From NCBI GenBank assembly GCA_035568275.1, contig DATMOO010000150.1, forward strand, positions 2,655 to 66,654: a stretch of DNA of 64,000 nucleotides, in the 5' to 3' direction. The stretch comes from Candidatus Sulfotelmatobacter sp. Lineage in GTDB: Bacteria; Acidobacteriota; Terriglobia; Terriglobales; Acidobacteriaceae. Both the position numbers and the translations under genes were made by a program. Positions 30,615 to 60,664 of this stretch are shown here, one piece after another (within the stretch, counting starts at the first letter, position 1; every line of letters begins with the position of its first letter). Under the pieces are notes generated by a model that was not told where the DNA came from, did no database searches, and saw only the letters and a program-made list of their open reading frames with translations.

Positions 30615-30787
30615 GCGGATGGTTTTCAGGTTGCGAGTTGACGATGCTCGGCAGTCAATGGGAGCATCCGCCCCCAGTAGACGGCGACGTGGGTTTTGGG
30701 GCTGGGGAAAGTTCCATCATCAGGTTTCTGAGACGTGGGATTGATCCCTATTCCACGAAGTTGCAAACGTCGCCAGGAGAAAACCTC

Positions 30788-33700
30788 ATGTCCGCGACGA
30801 CACGCATTCTCTCGTTCTGCCTTTTGATCACTTCAGCAGTGCACTTGTATGCTCAGGGCGGAGCCTACGGAACCATCCTAGGAACTGTCAAGGACAACTC
30901 TGGAGCCGTGGTGGCCAAGGCGGGAGTCGACGTCACCAACGTGGCCACGAATGTAATCAAACACACGGAAACTACCGCTTCGGGGGACTTCACAGTTCCT
31001 TATTTGGCGCCGGGAACCTACCGCGTGACTGTGCAGTCGCAAGGATTTCAGAAGTCTGTCGTGGATAACATCGGATTGGTGGTCGGCCAAGAGGCTCGTG
31101 CCGACGTAGCCCTAAAGACGGGCGCAGTCTCTGAGACTGTAGAAGTTCAGGCCAGCGCCGTCGCGCTCGATACTGACAGTTCGGCGGTCTCACAGCTCGT
31201 AAGCCAGAGGCAAGTAGAGGAGCTGCCGCTCAATGGGCGAAATTTCCTGAGTCTGCTTTTCATCGGCGCCGGTGCTGTCCAGACCGTCGGCGAACAGGGC
31301 CAAATGCGCCAAGGGGCAGGGAATGCCATCAGCATTAACGGCGGGCGGCCTGAGTCCAACAACTATACGCTGGACGGATTGATCAACACCGATACGTCGC
31401 TCAACACTCCGGCAGTGATTCTTTCACAGGATGCCATCCAGGAATTCAAGGTGGCCAGCGAGAATTACGCTGCGGAGTATGGCTACAGCGCCAATCAAGT
31501 CAACATCATCAGCAAGAGTGGCACAAACCAGTTACATGGTACAGCATTCTTATTCGACAGAAACAACGCGTTCGACGCTTACACGCCGACGCCGTTTCAA
31601 ACGACCCCGACCAAGCCGGTGCTGCGTCAAAACCAGTTCGGCTTTGTGGTCGGTGGCCCGGTATACATCCCCAAAGTTTACGACGGACGCAACAAGACGT
31701 TCTTTTTCGTGAACTATGAGGGCTGGCGAATTGCGAATGGATATATCCAGAATGGAATTGTTCCTACGGCGGCGGAACTGAATGGGGATTTCTCGGCTAC
31801 CGGCCTTCCGGCCTTCGATTTGACCGCGGGATCGCCCTGCCAACTGGCACTCACTTCAAGCCCGAACGCGCTACCCTGCATGCCGGGCGACCCCCAAACC
31901 GGCCTGGCATTTACCGGGCCCGTTCCCGCAAACCGTTTTTCACGCTTGGCGACGGTAGCGCTTGCGGCCAACGTCATTCCGAGCCCGACTCCGGCCTGCG
32001 TGAGCAACCCCGGTTCGTGTGCGGGCGGTAACTACCAGTTGGTTCGAACGCTGCCCAACAACACCGACCAGCAGACCTACAAGCTTGATCAGACCCTGGG
32101 CCGTTTCGGATCGGTGTTCTTCCGCTACACGAAGGCAGACTTTTCAAATGAGAACCCACAGAACCTCGGAACAGAATTTAGCCTGAATCAGTTTACGCAA
32201 AACAGCACCAGTTGGATGGTTTCGCACAACATTCCCCTTGGGCACAGTATCGTCAACAGTTTTCGCTTTGGACATCTGGATGCCATTGCCATCCAGGGTG
32301 CGCCAGCTGCGTCGAGCAGCCAGATTTCTGCTTTGGGCGTGACTGGGGTCTTCACCAACCTTCCAGCAAGTTACGCGGCAGGTTTCCCCACGATCAACTT
32401 TGAGGGAGCTCTGCTGGGCAGCTACGGCAGCCCGGGTAACAACCCGACGACCAGCGACGTACCGACGTGGGAATTCTCCGATTCCATGACTATGGTGCAC
32501 GGAAAGCACACCATCGGAGTGGGATTCGACTATCGCCGCTTTATTTCGAAGAGAAACCTCTCCGGAAACTTCTTGGGCGGTTATAGCTACACTAACAACA
32601 ATGTCCTGACCAACAGCAACACCGTAGGGGGTGTTCAGCAGTGTGCGACCTCCCTCTGTAGCACAGGGAACGAAGTAGCGGATTTCCTTCTCGGCTATTA
32701 CAACGGTGCCAACACGTTTCAACCGGGACCTTTCAGCAATCCAAGTATCGCCGGCAACTTGAATCAGTACCACTTTATGTACTTTGCTCCGTATGTGCAG
32801 GACGACTGGAAGGTGAACAGCCGCCTTACTTTAAACCTCGGACTGCGCTGGGACTACCGATCTGTGCCTTATGAACAGAGTAACAAGTTCTTCTGGATCG
32901 ATGATCAGAACACGAGCGGTGGAGGATTGTGTTTCGCTGATCAGGCCTTGGCAAACGACGGTGTCGCGCCGCCAGGGAACGGCTTCTATCGTTATTGCGG
33001 CCGGCACAATCCTGCCGACGGTTCCAAAACTCCATTCGCCCCCCGCCTTGGGTTTGCCTGGCGTCCGTTCGGCGGCGACAAGACAGTGGTCCGCGGTGGC
33101 TACGGAATCTTCTGGGATTCATCGGAGAGCCGCGAGATAGACGATTCCGGCGACCTATATCCTTTTGTCGAGCGCACTTCGCTTTCACCCAATTCGCAAT
33201 CGGCCACTGCAGCGCCCAAGTTGACCGATCAACTGTTCCCCGCTCAGACTGCGGTTGTTCCCGTGACCGCTCCGAATAGTCAGTTTGTTGCGGTCATTGT
33301 TTCCGACCACCCAAGGAATCCCTACGTGCAACAGTACACAGTCTCGGTGCAGCGTGAGGTGGCTCGCAACACCACGCTCGAGGTGAACTACGTTGGGAAT
33401 CGGGGACTCCATTTACTGGATCGCATCGACCTCAACACACCTTCCGTCTTGACCGGAACCCAACTGGCAACTTGCCAGGCGGCGTTTGCCGGCCTTCCCG
33501 CAACCAATAACATCTATCTCGCGAACCAGTGCCCTTTCTATGCACGTCAGCCCCTGCCTAACTTTGCAATTCCCGGTCCTTTGAATAGCTCGTGGACCGG
33601 CTACTCCAATTACAACGGCGGGAATGTGAAACTGGAACATCGTGGAGGCAGTTTCGCGCTGTTGACCGTTTACACCTACGCAAAGAGCATGGACGACAAA

Positions 33701-34372
33701 TCCGCTGCCGCCGGGATCGGAGCCAATGGCGCCGGCTTTGCCGGACATATGGACGATCTGAATCCGCACCTGGACTACGCTCCCTCAGATTTCAGCGTGA
33801 AGCATCGTTTCGTGAACAGCATCGTTTACGCCCTTCCGGTGGGGCGTGGAAAGCGCCTCCTGGGTGACATAAATAAGGCAGAAAATATGCTGATTGGCGG
33901 ATGGCAACTGAGTATGATCACGACATTCCAGACCGGATTCCCTTTCTCGATAAACGCGTCAGATCCGGGAGCCTATTTGAGTTTCGGGATGCGCGCCAAT
34001 CAATCGGGCAGTCCCAGCCCGATTGGCGGGAAGAACATTAATCATTGGTTCAACGTCTCTGCATTCACTCAGCCCGCCTTCGGTGTATACGGTGACTCCG
34101 GACGGAACATACTCACTCAACCAGGAATCAATAACTGGGATATCGGACTGGGCAAGACGTTCCAGTTCACCGAAAGGGTTGGTTTCCAGTTCCGGGTTGA
34201 AACTTTCAACACGTTTAACCACACTCAGTATGGGGTCGACCCAACTACCCAGGCTTCCGGGGGACCGGGCCAAAGTGCGGTTGATGGAACTCTCGGGACT
34301 GTTCAATTCGGGGAGGTCACCAGCGCTCGTCCTGGCCGAATTATTCAGTTCGGCGGCAAAGTCATCTTCTAG
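30788..34372 (+). CDS. TonB-dependent outer-membrane receptor with an N-terminal carboxypeptidase-regulatory-like domain (Acidobacteria-type, ~1190 aa)
   Basis: ATG 30788 has GGAGA upstream. It has a signal peptide (MSATTRILSFCLLITSAVHLYAQ), a CarboxypepD_reg-like fold (GTILGTVKDNSGAVV...GTYRVTV), a plug region (LPLNGRNFLSLL), a long barrel and a terminal aromatic residue (...GGKVIF). Confidence 0.9.
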   Translation: MSATTRILSFCLLITSAVHLYAQGGAYGTILGTVKDNSGAVVAKAGVDVTNVATNVIKHTETTASGDFTVPYLAPGTYRVTVQSQGFQKSVVDNIGLVVGQEARADVALKTGAVSETVEVQASAVALDTDSSAVSQLVSQRQVEELPLNGRNFLSLLFIGAGAVQTVGEQGQMRQGAGNAISINGGRPESNNYTLDGLINTDTSLNTPAVILSQDAIQEFKVASENYAAEYGYSANQVNIISKSGTNQLHGTAFLFDRNNAFDAYTPTPFQTTPTKPVLRQNQFGFVVGGPVYIPKVYDGRNKTFFFVNYEGWRIANGYIQNGIVPTAAELNGDFSATGLPAFDLTAGSPCQLALTSSPNALPCMPGDPQTGLAFTGPVPANRFSRLATVALAANVIPSPTPACVSNPGSCAGGNYQLVRTLPNNTDQQTYKLDQTLGRFGSVFFRYTKADFSNENPQNLGTEFSLNQFTQNSTSWMVSHNIPLGHSIVNSFRFGHLDAIAIQGAPAASSSQISALGVTGVFTNLPASYAAGFPTINFEGALLGSYGSPGNNPTTSDVPTWEFSDSMTMVHGKHTIGVGFDYRRFISKRNLSGNFLGGYSYTNNNVLTNSNTVGGVQQCATSLCSTGNEVADFLLGYYNGANTFQPGPFSNPSIAGNLNQYHFMYFAPYVQDDWKVNSRLTLNLGLRWDYRSVPYEQSNKFFWIDDQNTSGGGLCFADQALANDGVAPPGNGFYRYCGRHNPADGSKTPFAPRLGFAWRPFGGDKTVVRGGYGIFWDSSESREIDDSGDLYPFVERTSLSPNSQSATAAPKLTDQLFPAQTAVVPVTAPNSQFVAVIVSDHPRNPYVQQYTVSVQREVARNTTLEVNYVGNRGLHLLDRIDLNTPSVLTGTQLATCQAAFAGLPATNNIYLANQCPFYARQPLPNFAIPGPLNSSWTGYSNYNGGNVKLEHRGGSFALLTVYTYAKSMDDKSAAAGIGANGAGFAGHMDDLNPHLDYAPSDFSVKHRFVNSIVYALPVGRGKRLLGDINKAENMLIGGWQLSMITTFQTGFPFSINASDPGAYLSFGMRANQSGSPSPIGGKNINHWFNVSAFTQPAFGVYGDSGRNILTQPGINNWDIGLGKTFQFTERVGFQFRVETFNTFNHTQYGVDPTTQASGGPGQSAVDGTLGTVQFGEVTSARPGRIIQFGGKVIF

Positions 34373-34400
34373 AAGCTTGGCAGTAAACCAAGCAACCCAC

Positions 34401-34434
34401 CGCCAGGCCGACTGTGGCCTGGCGCGATTTTTTT
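34401..34434 (+). terminator. Rho-independent terminator after the receptor gene
   Basis: A 9-bp stem CGCCAGGCC/GGCCTGGCG with loop GACTGT, followed by CGA and T7. It is preceded by the 13-mer AACCCACCGCCAG, which it shares with the two attenuator hairpins. Confidence 0.7.
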
Positions 34435-42803: not shown

Positions 42804-45800
42804 ATGAGCCATTCTTGTGTTGCACGTATTCTTGCAATCGCAGTTGTAGCTGTGGCCGGAAGTCTGTCGCCCTCATCCTTCGCGCAAAATGCGCCGGCCT
42901 CTCTGGAAGATGGATTCAAGAATCCTCCGAATTCTGCCAGGCCACGCGTGTGGTGGCACTGGATGAACGGCAACATCACCAAGGAAGGAATCAAACTCGA
43001 CTTGGAGTGGATGAACCGGGTTGGCATCGGAGGTTTCCAGAACTTCGACGCGTCGCTGACCACTCCGAAGTTGGTCGACAAGCGCTTGGTCTATATGACG
43101 CCCGAATGGAAGGATGCGTTCCGCTACGCGACGATGCTTGCGGATCAACTCGGACTTGAGGAAGCGATTGCGGGATCTCCGGGATGGAGCGAATCGGGCG
43201 GTCCATGGGTGAAGCCAAACCAGGGCATGAAGAAAGTAGTCTGGAGTGAAATCCGAGTCGACGGTGGGAAGCCTTTTACGGGCGCGCTACCACATCCTCC
43301 GGCAGTCAGCGGGCCCATACAGAACATTCCACTTTTCGATTTTCTGGCCATGATCAGCGGGCAGCCTCCGACCGGGGGAGCTTCTTTCTATGCGGACACA
43401 GCGGTAATTGCTTATCGCGCGCCCGAAAATGATGTGCCGGTAACCGCACTGCAACCCAAAATTACTTCCAGCAGCGGCACACTAAATTTGGCCTTGCTCG
43501 ACGATGGCGACCTAGTTAAAACGACGCAACTGCCCAAGGCGCCAGCAGGCCAGCAGGCATGGGTACAGTACGAATTCACGTCTCCGCAGACCATGCACGC
43601 AGTAACGCTGGTGCTCAATGATCCGGGTGCGGCAGCAGCCAATATGTTCGGTGCCGCGCCGTCGATTGCAGATGTAGAAGCGAGTGACGATGGCCAGAGC
43701 TTCCGCAAACTCGTCGACATTCCCAACGACGGTGGAGAGGAACACACCATCGCGTTTCCCGCGACTAACGCGCGATTCTTCCGCATCGCGTTCACAGACC
43801 GGCCAGCACGCGCTTTTGGCGAGAACAATTTTGACGTTGAGAACCCGTTCGGCGACTTCAGCGGCACGAAGCCGAATCCAAATTTTGAGATTTCGGAGCT
43901 CGTGCTTCATCCGGGCGCGTTCGTAAGCCGGTTCGAGGAGAAGGCTGGCTTCGCCAATCTCATCGGCTTGGATGCGTTTCCCACGCCCCAAGTGTCTGCA
44001 AGTGATGCGATCCGTAAGAGCGACATCATGGACCTGACCGCCAAGATGCATCCCGATGGCACTCTGGATTGGACGCCACCGGCAGGGAACTGGGTCGTGC
44101 TTCGTTTCGGATATTCGCTTACGGGAGTTACGAACCATCCCGCATCACCGGAGGGCACAGGCCTTGAGGTCGACAAGCTCAGTCGCGAGGACGTGAAGGA
44201 GTACATGGATAAGTACCTCGACAACTACAAGAGCGCGGTCGGCGACCTGATGGGTAAGCGTGGACTGAGATTCGTGATTAACGATAGCTGGGAGGCCGGG
44301 ACGGCGAACTGGACCGATGACATGGTTGCCGAGTTCACCAAGCGCCGTCGCTATGATCCCCGCCCCTGGCTGCCCGTCCTGGCAGGCCACGTCATCGAGA
44401 GTTCTCAGGACAGCGATCGTTTCCTTTGGGACTTCCGCGAAACGCTCGGCGAGTTGCTGGCCGAGAACCACTATGACCAGATCAACGACATCTTGCATGC
44501 GCGCGGCATGGGCCACTACGGCGAATCCCATGAAGAGGGGCGGGCTTTCATTGGCGACGGCATGGAAGTGAAGCGCCACAATGACGTGCCCATGTCGGCC
44601 ATGTGGACGCAAAAGCCCGGCGTGAACAACGAACAGTATGGATATAACGCCGACATTCGCGAGTCTGCATCGGTGGCTCACATCTACGGCCAGAACCTGG
44701 TGGCCGCGGAATCTCTGACGGCATCCTCCGGCGCCTGGGCATGGTCGCCCGCGACTTTGAAACCTACTGCCGACAAAGAGTTGGCAATGGGACTCAACCG
44801 TTTCGTCCTTCATACTTCGGTGCATCAGCCGTTGTTGGACGAGAAGCCCGGCCTTGCGCTCGGACCATTCGGGCAATGGTTCAACCGCAATGAGACCTGG
44901 GCGGAGCAGGCGAAGCCGTGGGTATCGTATCTGGCTCGTAGTTCCTACCTGCTACAACAGGGACGCTTCGACGCCGATATCGCCTATTTCTACGGCGAAG
45001 ACTCCAACCTCACGGCGTTGTTTGGGAAGAAGAGTCCTGACATCCGCGCCGGCTACAACTTTGATTACATCAACGCCGATGCTCTGATTCACGTCCTGAC
45101 ATTCAAAGACGGACGACTCGCTACTCCCAGCGGCATGCGCTATCGCGTGCTCGCGCTCGACCCGCATAGTCAGCAAATGTCGCTGCCGGTGCTCAAGAAG
45201 ATTCGCGACCTGGTACAGGCCGGAGCGATCGTGGCCGGCCCGAAGCCGACGGACACACCGAGCCTGAGCGACAATACGAAAGAGTTTCAAAGCATCGTCG
45301 ATGAACTCTGGGGCTCAGGCAGTGGAAATACTGTAGGCAAAGGCAGAGTGTATGGGGATAAGGGTTTGGGAGATGTACTCACCGCAGTCACCGTCGCTCC
45401 CGACTTCGACTACACGAAGCCCGAACCCGATACGAATGTCCTTTTCGTCCATCGCAAGCTAGCTGACGGCGATCTCTATTTTGTCGACAACCGCAACGAC
45501 CGCGATGAGAATCTGGACGCCAGTTTTCGCATAACAGGAAAGGAAGCGGAACTGTGGCATGCGGATACAGGCGCGACGGAGCCGGCCTCGTTCCAAATCG
45601 CCGATGGCCGCACGACCGTGCCTCTTCACCTGGAGCCTTGGGGAACGGTATTCGTCGTATTCCGTAAATCTACGAAGAACCCTTCTCGCAACCTGCCGAA
45701 AACGGTTGAGACCACACTCGCGACGCTGGACGGTCCCTGGGATCTCAGCTTTGAGCCGAACCTGGGAGCGCCGGCGAAGATCACCCTCGACAAGCTGACC

Positions 45801-53424: not shown

Positions 53425-53615
53425 AATTAAAGACGCTACCTTTCTAGCCAAATGAAGGTGGGATACAGGCTGCCAAAGCAACGAAAGATTATCACTAACC
53501 GCTTGCAAGGAAGCTAAGTTGTTGATTTTACAGTGTTGAGAGGTGTCTGAGTGATAATGCAAAAATTCTGATTCCTTTTATCGAAATTTTGAGTCTAAGC
53601 CGGAGAACAGTAATG

Positions 53616-53644
53616 TTGACGGGCGCCAGTTGAGCCCGTAGAAT
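53616..53644 (+). promoter_or_regulatory. Sigma-70-type promoter TTGACG-N17-TAGAAT
   Basis: The -35 element is at 53616-53621 and the -10 element at 53639-53644, with an exact 17-nt spacer. The leader ATG is only 10 nt after the -10 box. Confidence 0.6.
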
Positions 53645-53654
53645 CAAACCTCGA

Positions 53655-53750
53655 ATGTCAGTGATCTCCAATCTTCGCGCGGTGTGCTGCTGCATCTGTT
53701 GTTGTTGTTGTGGATGCGTGCGCTCTGGCGCGGGGAGGCTGCTGACTTAA
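53655..53750 (+). CDS. Putative Cys-rich leader peptide (31 codons, 9 Cys) of the sulfite-reduction/cysteine-pathway operon
   Basis: Hand translation gives MSVISNLRAVCCCICCCCCGCVRSGAGRLLT-TAA, with Cys at codons 11-13, 15-19 and 21 (4 TGC, 5 TGT). It is not in the ORF track because it is too short. Confidence 0.6.
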   Translation: MSVISNLRAVCCCICCCCCGCVRSGAGRLLT

Positions 53751-53780
53751 GAATTTCTTCTTAAAGTAATAGCACTCATC

Positions 53781-53816
53781 AACCCACCGCCAGACGATCT
53801 GGCGGTGGGTTTTTTA
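53781..53816 (+). terminator. Intrinsic terminator / attenuator hairpin between the leader ORF and sir
   Basis: A perfect 14-bp stem AACCCACCGCCAGA / TCTGGCGGTGGGTT with a 3-nt loop, followed by T6. The sir ATG lies 12 nt after the T-tract. Confidence 0.8.
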
Positions 53817-56986: not shown

Positions 56987-57756
56987 AAGATCTCAGTCAG
57001 CCCTCCACCCCGATCGACGACCAACTGCAGGTTGCCCAAGTGCAGGCCGTCGCGGAAACCTGGTCTCCGCAGCACGTTCTAAGTTGGGCATTCCGGACGT
57101 TTGGCAAGAAAGTAGCCATCTCGTCGGCATTCGGCGTGGAAGGAATGGTGCTGATCGACATGGCGTCGCGCATCAGCAAGAACTTCCGCCTGTTCACAAT
57201 CGATACAGAGTTCCTGTTCGCGGAAACCTACAACCTGATGGACCGGATCGAAGAGAAGTACGGAATCACCATCGAAAGGGTTTACTCCACGCTCTCGCCG
57301 GAAGAGCAACAGCGAGTGCACGGCGAGGCTTTATGGACCAGCAACCCCGATCTATGCTGCAATCTGCGCAAGGTCGAACCGCTGCGCCGCAAGCTAGACG
57401 AATTGAGTGCGTGGATCACGAGCATCCGTCGCGATCAAACATCAGTACGTTCGGGAGCGAAGCGAATCGAGTGGGATGCGAAGTTCGGTCTGGTGAAAGT
57501 CAACCCCATTGTGGACTGGACGTCGAAGCAAGTGTGGCGCTACATCCATGACCATGATGTCCCGTACAACGCGCTTCACGATCAGGACTATCCCAGTATC
57601 GGCTGCACTCATTGCACCCGCGCTGTCAGGCCCGGAGAAGACCCGCGCGCCGGCCGTTGGCCCGGCTTTAACAAGACTGAGTGCGGGCTGCACATCATCG
57701 AGCCGCTTCCAGCATCGTCACAGGTGCAAGCGGCGACCGCAGAAGGCGGCGATTAA
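56983..57756 (+). CDS. cysH: Adenylylsulfate (APS)/PAPS reductase, thioredoxin-dependent, Fe-S type
   Basis: PAPS_reduct fold with C-terminal KTECGLH. The CC pair (LCCNLRKVEPL) plus CxxC (GCTHCT) are the [4Fe-4S] ligands typical of APS-specific CysH enzymes. Confidence 0.9.
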   Translation: MKDLSQPSTPIDDQLQVAQVQAVAETWSPQHVLSWAFRTFGKKVAISSAFGVEGMVLIDMASRISKNFRLFTIDTEFLFAETYNLMDRIEEKYGITIERVYSTLSPEEQQRVHGEALWTSNPDLCCNLRKVEPLRRKLDELSAWITSIRRDQTSVRSGAKRIEWDAKFGLVKVNPIVDWTSKQVWRYIHDHDVPYNALHDQDYPSIGCTHCTRAVRPGEDPRAGRWPGFNKTECGLHIIEPLPASSQVQAATAEGGD

Positions 57757-57765
57757 CATCGGCAC

Positions 57766-59211
57766 CTACCCGGCCTCACAGAACGCGCTGGAAATTCCTC
57801 CCCAGTCGCGCGCCGGCTCGAGTTTGGGAAAGAAGACGCTGTGGAGGCGGCGCACCGATTCTTCAGCCTTCGACTCATCGACTAGGAACGATAAAGTGCG
57901 TTCCGATGCCCCCTGGCAAAGAACGCGTACATCCATGTCGGAAACGGTCGCGAAGAGCTGGCTCGCCACTTCTGGTTGACGCCGGATATTCTCCCCGACG
58001 AGACAAACGAGTGCCTTATGATTCTCCCATCGTACGTCGGCGACTTGCTGCAGATCCTCGACAATCTTCGGCAGCGCTACGTTCGAACCAACCAACAGTG
58101 AGATTCGGTCGACCGAAGTCCCCATCACATCCACCGCACAGGTGTACTGCTCAAGCACCCCAAACACGGTATTCAGCAAAGCAGCATCGACCCCGCGCCG
58201 CGACTGGATTTCGAGCGAGACAATATTTCGTTTTGCGGTGATGGCGCTTACGCGGTTTCCCGTGCTCGCACGCGCCATAATTTCAGTTCCATGTCCCTCG
58301 GGGTGCCGCGAGTTCAACACATAAACAGGGATGTTCTCTCGCATTGCCGGCGCAAGAGTTGCCGGATGCAGTACCTTGGCTCCAAAGTGCGCCAGGTCAG
58401 CAGCTTCATCGAAGCTTAGCTTGCGGATCACGCGCGCATCGGAACAGATCTTCGGGTCCGTCGTCATGACTCCGTCAACATCCGTCCAGATCTCGACTCG
58501 CGACGCTCCTACGGCCGCTCCGACAATCGCAGCGCTGCAGTCCGACCCGCCGCGCCCCAGGGTGGTGGGAACTCCGTCAATGGTCGAGGCAATAAAGCCA
58601 CCAAGAACTGGAATGCTCCCCGCCTGCAGAAGAGGATTCAAAACGTCTCGAAGGCGCTGATTGGTTACGTCCCACAGCGGACTTGCTTGTCCGTGGCGCG
58701 CATCGGTGACGATGCAACTGCGCGCATCAACATGCGCAGCCTGCAACCCGGCTTCGCAGAGCGCCCAGCTGACCAGCCTGCTCGAGAAGCATTCCCCAAA
58801 GCTCAGCAATCGATCCTGTGCCTTAAGGTCAAAGTAACGGGAGGTTTCCAGATCGTGTAGGAACGATTCCAATGCTTGTAATTCGCCGCGCAGCTCTCGG
58901 TCCAGCGAGCCATACGCCGAAGCGCTGAGAAGCGAATCAGCCAACTCCTCGTGGCGAACGTAAATGTTTCGAACCGTTGCGAGAGCCGATCCCAAATGGC
59001 CCTTAGCAGCGGCATGCCCGGCCTCCAACAGGTGGTCGGTAACTTTCGCCAGCGCGCTAATAATTAACACCGGCTTTGCGCCTAGTCTGCCGTCAACAAT
59101 GCTGATGACTCGTCGAATAGCGGCTACGTCCTCGACAGACGTCCCGCCGAATTTCATGACCACCACATCCTCGCCGCGTTCAAATCTGCTTTGTCGCTGT
59201 GAACCGCTCAT
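57766..59211 (-). CDS. lysC: Aspartate kinase (monofunctional, with C-terminal ACT domains)
   Basis: VVMKFGGTSV, ...VLGGFIASTIDGVPTTLGRGGSDCSAA... and ...IWTDVDGVMTTDP are present. The ATG at 59211 has GGAG 11 nt upstream. Confidence 0.9.
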   Translation of the reverse strand: MSGSQRQSRFERGEDVVVMKFGGTSVEDVAAIRRVISIVDGRLGAKPVLIISALAKVTDHLLEAGHAAAKGHLGSALATVRNIYVRHEELADSLLSASAYGSLDRELRGELQALESFLHDLETSRYFDLKAQDRLLSFGECFSSRLVSWALCEAGLQAAHVDARSCIVTDARHGQASPLWDVTNQRLRDVLNPLLQAGSIPVLGGFIASTIDGVPTTLGRGGSDCSAAIVGAAVGASRVEIWTDVDGVMTTDPKICSDARVIRKLSFDEAADLAHFGAKVLHPATLAPAMRENIPVYVLNSRHPEGHGTEIMARASTGNRVSAITAKRNIVSLEIQSRRGVDAALLNTVFGVLEQYTCAVDVMGTSVDRISLLVGSNVALPKIVEDLQQVADVRWENHKALVCLVGENIRRQPEVASQLFATVSDMDVRVLCQGASERTLSFLVDESKAEESVRRLHSVFFPKLEPARDWGGISSAFCEAG

Positions 59212-59238
59212 GTTCTTTCAGCTCCATTCTTAGAAATC

Positions 59239-59283
59239 GCCCAAAAGCAAAACCCACCGCCAGATTGCTTCTGGCGGTGGGTT
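59239..59283 (-). terminator. Intrinsic terminator / attenuator hairpin in the aspartate kinase leader
   Basis: The same 14-bp arms (AACCCACCGCCAGA / TCTGGCGGTGGGTT) with a 5-nt loop, followed on the minus strand by TTTTGCTTTTGG. It lies 27 nt upstream of the lysC ATG. Confidence 0.65.
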
Positions 59284-59315
59284 TCGGTGATCTTGCTTAA
59301 GATTGCTTTACTTCA

Positions 59316-59411
59316 TCATCCGTTCCCGTCCTCCAGAAGGCACGTAATTCGTGTCGACATGCCTGTGCCTGTCGATGTAATTCGCTTCGCCTTCTGGACG
59401 AGGGTGCTCAT
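59316..59411 (-). CDS. Putative leader peptide (31 codons) rich in aspartate-family residues, upstream of aspartate kinase
   Basis: Hand translation of the minus strand gives MSTLVQKAKRITSTGTGMSTRITCLLEDGNG-TGA. It contains 6 Thr, 2 Ile, 2 Lys and 1 internal Met. There is no obvious SD. Confidence 0.35.
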   Translation of the reverse strand: MSTLVQKAKRITSTGTGMSTRITCLLEDGNG

Positions 59412-59515
59412 GAAATCAGGAACTGCAAAAACGCACAATGAGAATATCGGACAGATGCCGTCCAGGTTAAATTCAAAATTGTGATGTTACGAATCGAAAT
59501 TTCAGGTTCCGGCTG

Positions 59516-60418
59516 CTAGGCATCCACCTTCTTCATATGCGTCGCAAACTGCCGTAAAAGGGCCACAAATGCAGTCGATGCCACCGAAAGCGTGCGGTCG
59601 CGACGGTACGCCAGTCCCAGTTCACGATAGAGTTCCGCATCTTCAAGGTCGATTAACTTAACCCGTCCTGCATCCACTTCGTCGCGAGCAAACGACGCGC
59701 TGATGAGTGATACCCCCAGATCGGCTGCCACAAAGCTCTTGATCATCCCAATGCTCGGTAACTCCATCCGCACCTGCAGTTCAGCATTGTGCGGCCGGAA
59801 CAGCTTGTCCAGAAGCCTGCGCGTGTGACCGGTCTTCGGAAACAGCAGCGGATGCTTCACGATCTCGCTAACCGGCACGACTTTGTGCTTGGCCAGCGGA
59901 TTCTTCGGGCTCACCATCAGCATCAGTTTGTCGCGAAAAATTGGCTGGATCTTCAGGCTGGGAGACTGAATCGGCAGCGTCAGAATGCCCACTTCCACCG
60001 CGCCGTTTTCGAGTTTCTCCACGATCTTGTAGCTGAAATTGCGATAGATGCTGATCTGCACCGGGGGATACCGCCGGCAGTATTCCGCAAAAACCTCCGG
60101 CAGGACATACAAACAAGTGGCCTCGTTGGCCCCGACGCGCAGGGTGCCGCGAGGAGTGGTGCTGTGGTCGGCAACCGCTGTGAGCGACTCATCCCGCAGA
60201 TTCTTAAGGCGCTCGGCGTACTCGTAGAAAATTTGTCCGGCGGGCGTCAGCTTCACGGTTTTGCCAGAGCGGTCGAGCAGGCGGTCACCGTATTCCTGCT
60301 CCAGTTGGCGGATCTGCGCGCTGACCGCCGACTGTGAACGAAACACCTTTTCCCCCGCACGGGAAAAACTGCCCTGTCTGGCGACTTCCAGGAAGGTAAT
60401 GAGTTGATCAAAGTCCAT
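59516..60418 (-). CDS. LysR-family transcriptional regulator, divergent from gltB (GltC-like arrangement)
   Basis: N-terminal HTH (FDQLITFLEVARQGSFSRAGEKVFRSQSAVSAQIRQLE) and a LysR substrate-binding domain. Confidence 0.85.
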   Translation of the reverse strand: MDFDQLITFLEVARQGSFSRAGEKVFRSQSAVSAQIRQLEQEYGDRLLDRSGKTVKLTPAGQIFYEYAERLKNLRDESLTAVADHSTTPRGTLRVGANEATCLYVLPEVFAEYCRRYPPVQISIYRNFSYKIVEKLENGAVEVGILTLPIQSPSLKIQPIFRDKLMLMVSPKNPLAKHKVVPVSEIVKHPLLFPKTGHTRRLLDKLFRPHNAELQVRMELPSIGMIKSFVAADLGVSLISASFARDEVDAGRVKLIDLEDAELYRELGLAYRRDRTLSVASTAFVALLRQFATHMKKVDA

Positions 60419-60664
60419 GGGTTGGCGGAATTATAGCGGAGTCGCTTCGAAATAGCGGTTAATTCCTGAGCGTCTGCACGCTGCCGCTCGCCCGGAATTT
60501 TGCATGCGAGCCATCGAAATTCTGCATTGTACTTTGCGGCCTCATAAGCCATTAAATAGAGTCGGAACCATAGTCCTGAGCAGAAGTGTGCCGTGTAGAA
60601 TAGCCTCGCCGGTGCGCCCAAGAACAGGTGATCCAGACATCTTTCATTCCGCACGACGGAGTCC

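Follow-up and report, generated by a model that had tools for sequence, protein, structure and literature searches.

What are a small open reading frame (ORF) and a transcription terminator doing directly in front of a gene for aspartate kinase? The question is raised by the minus strand of a 64,000-nucleotide stretch of Candidatus Sulfotelmatobacter sp. DNA (GenBank assembly GCA_035568275.1, contig DATMOO010000150.1, positions 2,655 to 66,654, in the following called the window), where the gene lysC is preceded by a 31-codon ORF and a perfect hairpin that recurs, with identical arms, behind a second, Cys-rich small ORF ahead of a sulfite reductase operon. The answer we consider likely, drawn from sequence comparison and folding calculations, is that the lysC cassette acts on the aspartate kinase gene as a transcription attenuator of the ribosome-mediated (leader-peptide) kind. 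Its parts exist, are conserved and are specifically linked to the gene. Such an attenuator had been proposed in an earlier reading of the same DNA (the original prediction), and the joint conservation of ORF and hairpin, the match between leader type and gene and the absence of an Rfam match support it with the corrections given below.

The lysC cassette and its conservation

On the minus strand a LysR-type gene (60418-59516) is followed after a gap of 304 nt by lysC (59211-57766), and the leader cassette is located within this gap. The gene that would be under control, lysC or ask, encodes a monofunctional aspartate kinase of 481 aa, scoring 343.9 bits against TIGR00657 asp_kinases (NCBIfam) at a cut-off of 208.7. 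The leader ORF MSTLVQKAKRITSTGTGMSTRITCLLEDGNG extends from the ATG at 59411 to the end of the TGA at 59316 and comprises 31 codons plus the stop. A 32-nt spacer separates its stop from a GC-rich, perfect 14-bp hairpin at 59283-59251, formed by AACCCACCGCCAGA (59283-59270), the loop AGCAA and TCTGGCGGTGGGTT (59264-59251) with a fold energy of −29.3 kcal/mol, and the U-tract TTTTGCTTTTGG (59250-59239), which in relatives mostly reads TTTTTCTTTG, completes an intrinsic terminator between ORF and gene. From the end of the hairpin it is 39 nt to the lysC ATG at 59211, which is served by a Shine-Dalgarno (SD) sequence GGAG at 59225-59222. The minus-strand ORF, the hairpin with the arms of the cys-operon terminator and the SD of lysC were thus all found as originally described.

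In DNA of 57% GC a 31-codon ORF is by itself unremarkable, and this one gains its significance from being conserved in relatives. We aligned 39 distinct leaders of the same kind, termed type 1, from genomes with a LysC 59–100% identical to that of the window; all 39 keep both the ATG and the stop, and the peptide follows the pattern M-x3-IQK-x2-RITSTGTGMSTRITCLLEDG(I/N)G. The length from the ATG to the conserved core is 27, 30 or 33 nt (26 in one sequence) and that within the core 45 or 48 nt, whereas the distances from a candidate −10 element to the ATG (8–46 nt), from the stop-region marker TGAAG to the hairpin (31–35 nt) and from the hairpin to lysC (29–52 nt) vary freely. Length variants are multiples of three in 12 of 13 sequences for the ORF and in none of 18 for the spacer, a difference with a Fisher p of 9e-8 if kinship is ignored.

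The comparison of lysC upstream regions suggested along with the original prediction was also run on metagenomic homologs picked by the LysC protein alone, without using the hairpin. Leader ORF and hairpin are present in all 17 homologs at 68–81% LysC identity, the stem being exact in 15, altered by a G.U change in one and by a C.A mismatch in another; together with 44 Thr-type leaders among the 127 listed sites treated below, these establish a short ORF that is conserved jointly with the hairpin directly upstream of a biosynthetic gene. At 56% identity, one pair of the stem in locus L150 (MTFSTQNVRITSTGTITRIIVSSGEGHLMS) has turned from A-U into a compensated G-C, and further Thr-rich versions occur at L151 (52%) as well as L168, L169 and L186 (about 47–48%). 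Distant leaders were found at L043, L059 and L104 (LysC identity about 48%; peptide M-SLIQ--RTMT(I/M)TTMAMRITALLEEGAG) and in front of a second AA_kinase family at L060 (32%; MISIATKRITTTTSMSMTSTKAKTTIFASGAWRNI) and L013 (36%; MLSSATKRMFSRSTTKTTPSTTTIKSTTIASGAWRNS). Most LysC homologs of at most 50% identity (metagenome loci L153-L210) have no leader ORF, no terminator and no Rfam hit in this place; their lysC lies directly downstream of a conserved coding region that by sequence is asd-like (aspartate-semialdehyde dehydrogenase). A recurring pseudo-peptide, ..VRSRxSMW.., considered upstream of distant lysC genes as a further leader was discarded, as the alignment showed it to be the out-of-frame 3' end of this asd-like region.

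Linkage of stem, codons and gene

To follow the stem beyond lysC, one genome per species was scanned with the pattern CCCACCGCCAGA-N3-8-TCTGGCGGTGGG, corresponding to a 12-bp stem, which returned at least 120 stretches; hairpins were oriented by their T-tract and the next gene was identified with BLAST. The exact stem occurs at no fewer than 125 further sites on contigs of metagenome-assembled genomes (MAGs), nearly all of them named Acidobacteriota (Terriglobales, 'Ca. Sulfotelmatobacter', 'Ca. Acidoferrum'), in keeping with the window itself, where the sir product shares 98% identity with its counterpart in a Terriglobales MAG and LysC 94% with that of a Terriglobia MAG. Among the matches listed, 127 sites, the hairpin follows a Cys-rich ORF 81 times and a Thr-rich ORF 44 times, two sites being unscorable. 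Behind Thr-rich leaders the downstream gene is an aspartate kinase or AA_kinase wherever it could be identified (35 sites), and behind Cys-rich leaders it is sulfite reductase (64 sites), apart from one further leader of a separate flank class that precedes a porin gene; at the remaining 25 sites it is truncated or frameshifted. No crossed pair of leader type and gene was seen among these listed sites where the gene was identifiable. An extra class of Cys-codon leaders (L105:4286-6113, L011, L067, L122; e.g. MILDVQTIKQACLCCLCCMSASSGAGRLIL) bears the same hairpin and has a promoter ending 6–10 nt before the start codon; in L105 it is located upstream of a Porin_5 family gene.

This distribution bears on an alternative whose outline was already raised with the original prediction, namely that the hairpin is one copy of a dispersed palindromic repeat or a plain terminator for the LysR-type gene upstream, and that the ORF before it arose by chance. 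It could draw on the LysR-type gene, which in type-1 loci is always found upstream on the same strand, and on a near-copy of the 5' arm at 34394 that is part of an ordinary terminator after a long ORF. With 125 of the 127 listed sites following a Cys- or Thr-rich leader ORF, the stem behaves neither as a dispersed palindromic repeat (REP-like) nor as a generic terminator, and its confinement, among the matches listed, to leader ORFs and matched genes excludes both. The upstream gene is moreover divergent at the sir copy and at the distant lysC versions L043, L059 and L060, where the opposite strand carries the largest nearby ORF upstream. The 39 nt that separate hairpin and lysC in the window are too short to hold a promoter, and the type-1 alignment contains no conserved promoter in the corresponding 29–52 nt, so that lysC must be read through the hairpin. 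As the ORF is conserved along with the hairpin, we regard this alternative as largely refuted.

The codon content of the ORF fits the gene behind it. Residues 7-23 include, as originally counted, 10 of 17 that are Lys, Thr, Ile or Met (binomial p ~9e-5 against the amino-acid usage of the window), so that the ORF is enriched in codons for end products of the controlled pathway. ACA, which at 15% is the least used Thr codon in 29 long ORFs of the window, accounts for four of the six Thr codons of the leader, and these four are invariant in relatives. Thr is enriched in each of seven leader variants (p 0.007 to 3e-5), as are Thr, Ile, Lys and Met taken jointly, with examples as unlike in sequence as MSSLIQTAVRTMTITTMAMRITALLEEGAG, MISIATKRITTTTSMSMTSTKAKTTIFASGAWRNI and MKLSITQTTRITVCTTTSTSMRITCLLGEGAC; the distant leader types have different peptides that are still rich in Thr, Met, Ile and Lys. 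The Lys codons, counted as part of the signal in the original prediction, proved not to be conserved as such, since K7 belongs to the pairing segment 1 (CAG AAG) and K9 is often Thr. The main signal would accordingly be Thr, complemented by Ile and Met, which are the portion of the predicted signal that held up. A likeness of the KRITST and GNG strings to E. coli thrL, noted at the same time, is coincidental, relatives often having TRITST and GIG.

Conservation of the peptide could in principle reflect a function of its own, with the hairpin merely ending the transcript. Within type 1 the core RITSTGTGMSTRITCLLEDG is indeed strongly conserved. The distant versions, however, have unrelated peptides with the same amino-acid bias, the N-terminus varies, and the sister ORF is a run of Cys codons, while the conserved C-terminal residues (CLLEDG, ALLEEG, SGAGR, ASGAWR, VWRGR) are accounted for by the RNA pairing segment that they encode. 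A functional 31-residue peptide is therefore hardly to be expected here, and the attenuator remains the reading that we follow.

Alternative pairings and the proposed switch

An attenuator of this kind needs mutually exclusive RNA structures. The original prediction had named three complementary stretches for a 1:2 / 2:3 / 3:4 layout, which were located as CCAGAAGG (59397-59390), CCTTCTGG (59340-59333) and CCAGAAG (59274-59268). Segment 1, CCAGAAGG at 59390-59397, forms the base of a long 1:2 hairpin by pairing with segment 2 in the minimum free energy (MFE) fold; segment 2, CCTTCTGGAGGACGGG at 59325-59340, can pair either with segment 1 or, as antiterminator, with the 5' arm of the terminator, whose two arms represent segments 3 and 4. 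Codons 10-23 (59343-59384), located between segments 1 and 2, make up the putative regulatory block R I T S T G T G M S T R I T, whose nucleotides are nearly invariant among relatives. All three pairings are present, with computed duplex energies of about −19.7, −19.6 and −31 kcal/mol: the base of 1:2 amounts to −19.7 kcal/mol and the whole 1:2 hairpin to −31.2, while 2:3 ranges from −17.9 to −19.6 and 3:4 from −29 to −31. The 2:3 duplex energy is matched by only 2 of 300 dinucleotide shuffles. A partner for the terminator 5' arm exists in the last 13 codons of all ten leader variants, Cys types included, at −18 to −22 kcal/mol, and in nine of the ten no more than 8 of 300 dinucleotide shuffles reach the observed energy.

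RNA folding of the leader, proposed as a check in the original prediction, yielded the long 1:2 hairpin plus the terminator as the MFE structure, with z = −7.8 relative to shuffled sequence. Folding the nascent RNA under constraint gave the 2:3 antiterminator for a ribosome at codon 20; with the ribosome at the stop codon, or with none, 1:2 stays and the terminator forms.

A fold so much better than that of shuffled sequence, in conjunction with extreme conservation at the nucleotide level, is also what an undescribed riboswitch or other ligand-sensing leader RNA would display, the ORF then being present by chance in conserved sequence. Rfam gave no match at the gathering threshold in the whole window; lowering the threshold to E values up to 10 for the region 59150-59560 returned chance hits on the hairpin only, and nothing relevant was obtained on 20 related loci. 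The leader thus belongs neither to Thr_leader (RF00506) nor to other leader or riboswitch families such as the lysine riboswitch, T-box or SAM, and the concern that a riboswitch model might explain it was not borne out by any Rfam family. Diverged versions share codon content, ORF frame, segment 2 and terminator, but neither the sequence of a sensing part nor an obvious fold, which makes a riboswitch very unlikely.

For the attenuator we propose the following course of events. Transcription would begin ahead of the small ORF, at a promoter that is probably activator-dependent and lies beside a conserved palindrome described below, and a ribosome would translate the 31-codon ORF without an SD. 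If charged Thr-tRNA (mainly the reader of ACA), Ile-tRNA and Met-tRNA are plentiful, the ribosome should reach the stop codon and cover segment 2 (CCUUCUGGAGGACGGG), upon which the 14-bp hairpin and its U-tract would form and transcription would end 39 nt before lysC; in the absence of translation, segment 1 would pair with segment 2 and the terminator would form as well. A stall at codons ~10-20 (R I T S T G T G M S T) would be expected to open the 1:2 hairpin, so that the free segment 2 could pair with the emerging terminator 5' arm and RNA polymerase would read into lysC. Translation of the ORF, ribosome stalling and regulated read-through are what we infer from the arrangement of these sequences.

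Leader-peptide attenuation is textbook biology for enteric bacteria. In the attenuator of the E. coli thr operon, a Thr/Ile-rich leader ORF (thrL), an intrinsic terminator and alternative pairings precede an aspartate kinase gene. The lysC cassette resembles it in combining a short Thr/Ile-rich ORF and a terminator in front of aspartate kinase, and in the predicted logic by which starvation for end products causes stalling and read-through. It differs in lacking any sequence or covariance-model similarity, Thr_leader RF00506 being unmatched even at E up to 10, and in controlling a monofunctional aspartate kinase in place of thrA-thrB-thrC; its Thr codons are scattered (type 1), Met codons are involved, and there is no SD.

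Outside the enteric bacteria, classical attenuators of amino-acid operons have been predicted in Actinobacteria (Seliverstov et al. 2005, PMC1262725), which is similar in that leader-peptide attenuators were predicted by comparative genomics outside Proteobacteria; our searches turned up neither aspartate kinase nor Acidobacteriota in that work, nor a terminator module shared by differently coded leaders. In mycobacteria, polycysteine leaderless short ORFs at several loci respond together via ribosome pausing as a 'ribulon' (Canestrari et al., bioRxiv 10.1101/834739). These likewise are SD-less or leaderless sensory ORFs whose codon content fits the controlled pathway, but they act on translation, whereas the cassette described here has a canonical intrinsic terminator, belongs to another phylum and bears no sequence relation to them. 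Our literature search revealed no earlier description of the element or of leader-peptide control of aspartate kinase in Acidobacteriota, nor of a terminator module common to differently coded leaders or of cassette duplication with codon exchange.

If the attenuator is real, it offers an example, conserved widely and easy to test, of control over the first step in the pathway to Thr, Met, Ile and Lys. Its sensing codons vary by lineage (Thr and Ile; Thr and Met; Thr with Lys, Ile and Met) around a fixed read-out module, amounting to a natural experiment in attenuator re-targeting. Uses can be envisaged in genome annotation, since the small ORFs are currently unannotated, and in the design of amino-acid-responsive switches.

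A number of observations weigh against such an attenuator. The antiterminator is weaker than the terminator by about 10 kcal/mol, which means that the switch must be a kinetic one. A simple footprint model lets the antiterminator win only for stalls near codon 20. A ribosome stalled at codons 12-16 does not cover the base of segment 1 (codons 5-8), which lies just behind it, and for these stalls the crude model lets the 1:2 base pair across the ribosome. In a few relatives segment 1 varies with no compensating change. RNAalifold, applied to 37 type-1 leaders, gave the terminator and small local stems only, with no covariation and without recovering the long 1:2 hairpin; covariation for 1:2 and 2:3 is missing because the alignment columns hardly vary, and this outcome neither supports nor contradicts the two pairings. 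The Thr codons of type 1 are scattered with no run, as the original prediction had already conceded, and almost no variation is seen in the central 75 nt, third codon positions included, so that within type 1 conservation cannot tell coding from RNA-level constraint.

The start of the leader adds to these points. Only 3 of 39 leaders have an SD before the ATG, as opposed to 38 of 39 lysC starts; the missing SD admitted as a weakness of the original prediction is thus shared by 36 of 39 relatives and constitutes a consistent trait of the leader family. It makes translation of the ORF, together with read-through on starvation, the weakest link of the model. The 5' untranslated region of the type-1 leader would measure roughly 1–39 nt, i.e. 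it is not leaderless, and no usable −35 element was found for it, a weak −35 being left unexplained by the attenuator model.

Likewise unexplained by the attenuator is the invariance of the stem sequence. The stem is identical among leader types while loop length (3–8 nt), loop sequence, spacer and segment 2 differ, and the changes seen are restricted to a G.U arising from C to T in 7 sir leaders, a single further G.U, one C.A mismatch and the compensated A-U to G-C pair in L150. Pairing with several partners may freeze the stem; this explanation is incomplete, since segment 2 diverged between Cys and Thr types. The invariance is an argument for factor-dependent attenuation, in which a trans-acting protein or RNA reads the invariant stem or the leader RNA for both the sulfite reductase and the aspartate kinase leaders, with the ORF as a secondary or added layer. 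A 12-bp stem identical in two to five differently coded leader types from more than 100 genomes, surrounded by elements that all differ between the types, would fit such a factor, as would the invariant third codon positions of the core and a palindrome upstream of both cassettes that suggests joint control. Nevertheless, the match of Cys ORF with sulfur gene and Thr ORF with aspartate kinase, the frame-keeping indels and the retained codon content need translation; the variable loop length speaks against a dimeric DNA-binding protein on the palindromic stem, the compensated pair and the several G.U changes show that it is pairing that is kept, and no candidate factor is known. We therefore judge factor-dependent control, which is the main rival or else an added layer, improbable, if less so than a riboswitch, and retain ribosome-mediated attenuation.

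Promoter, palindrome and the sister Cys cassette

The context of the leader ATG is conserved as (A/T)TTTC-ATG-A. The 39-leader alignment contains a conserved TAnnCT, in the window TATTCT at 59446-59441 (minus strand), as a candidate −10 element of the leader promoter. The statement of the original prediction that there is no clear promoter consequently holds for the −35 region, for which no good element exists, and has to be amended by this −10-like hexamer and an upstream palindrome. Two further ideas on the type-1 start were rejected: a conserved TTGAAT as sigma-70 −35 is separated from TAnnCT by 23–24 nt, which is too long, and a simple promoter scan stayed empty there; a leaderless start would require a −10-like hexamer 6–8 nt before the ATG, where none is found. 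Cys and distant Thr leaders have a good sigma-70 promoter ending 6–14 nt before the ATG (e.g. TTGACC-17-TATAGT in L043), and these leaders are therefore leaderless or nearly so. Around the leader stop (59310-59320, minus strand), a mini-ORF AUG(AUG)AAGUAA overlaps the stop codon in an AUGA arrangement, about 9–12 nt past a GGAGGA; type-1 leaders carry it in nearly invariant form, and other leader types lack it.

Just past the LysR-type gene and upstream of the leader, at 59476-59502 on the minus strand, lies the palindromic, operator-like site AAATTTCGAT-N7-ATCACAATTT. The corresponding pattern AAATTnnGAT-N7-ATCGnAATTT has two hits in the window against 0 expected, the second one at 53563-53589 upstream of the promoter of the Cys leader, and most lysC type-1 and sir loci keep the palindrome at about 200–230 nt upstream of the hairpin. 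A half-site match at 43876 was dismissed, being inside a long ORF and not a full palindrome. A related site, GAATTTCGAT-N7-ATGCAAAATT, is found at about 60496-60522 in the divergent lysR-gltB intergenic region, and in 26 of 35 loci a related palindrome precedes the LysR-type gene by about 105 nt. The LysR-type (LysR/GltC-like) gene is 90–99% identical among genomes whose LysC is only about 70% identical. The three palindromes are probably the operator of the LysR/GltC-like regulator encoded at 59516-60418, and the promoter of the type-1 lysC leader may well depend on it. Binding of the regulator to all three sites would link glutamate synthase, aspartate kinase and sulfite reduction.

The sister cassette, comprising palindrome, promoter, Cys-rich ORF and hairpin, occupies 53563-53811 on the plus strand, about 5.5 kb from the lysC leader, and is directed toward an operon of sulfite reductase, siroheme synthase and cysH. 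Its leader MSVISNLRAVCCCICCCCCGCVRSGAGRLLT (53655-53750) has 31 codons, nine of them Cys, and is followed after a 30-nt spacer by a hairpin with identical 14-nt arms (53781-53811). A sigma-70 promoter TTGACG-17-TAGAAT (53616-53644) ends 10 nt before the ATG, so that this leader is nearly leaderless. Allowing up to 2 mismatches, the 14-mer arm has 5 matches in the window compared with 0.39 expected, a number reached in none of 100 shuffles.

Both cassettes share the terminator arms, the length of 31 codons, spacers of 30 and 32 nt, an antiterminator segment at the end of the ORF and the palindrome at the same distance. The equality of geometry pointed out in the original prediction stands as far as the ORF and spacer lengths are concerned; a common TAAAG.AAT at the beginning of both spacers does not, since TAAAGNAAT sits 5 nt past the stop at lysC and 11 nt past it at cys. 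The Cys leader differs by having nine Cys as presumed sensing codons instead of Thr, Ile and Met, by its good sigma-70 promoter and by being nearly leaderless. Outside the hairpin the similarity is modest, the score of the last 75 nt being reached by 44 of 1000 shuffles and that of the operator region by 6 of 1000, and over the 5' half of the ORF the same shuffle comparison gave no similarity signal between Cys and Thr leaders. The Cys leader is the closest relative of the lysC leader. We conclude that the two are probably paralogous cassettes, and the shared terminator and operator suggest a duplication of the cassette followed by codon exchange.

Taken one step further, this leads to a single re-programmable cassette (operator, promoter, ~31-codon sensor ORF and fixed terminator) in which only the sensing codons are exchanged, and whose stem is invariant in more than 100 species because a shared trans-acting factor, protein or RNA, reads it. 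We put this forward as a speculation that is more probably wrong than right; if it were true, a common control layer on top of codon sensing and the LysR-type operator would tie sulfur assimilation to synthesis of the aspartate family.

Two minor observations concern the surroundings of the cassettes. At 57756-57766 the sulfite reductase operon, ending in cysH on the plus strand, converges with lysC on the minus strand, their stop codons lying only 9 nt apart; no terminator is located between them, and the leader cassettes flank the convergent pair as inverted copies. The third near-copy of the 5' arm in the window (AACCCACCGCCAGG, 13 of 14 positions) is part of a different hairpin at 34394-34430, CGCCAGGCC-GACTGT-GGCCTGGCG followed by T7, which starts 21 nt past the stop codon of a 1244-aa ORF (30638-34372). 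It is nearly the sole other canonical intrinsic terminator that resulted from the scan of the window, and may be a decayed copy of the stem or a chance match.

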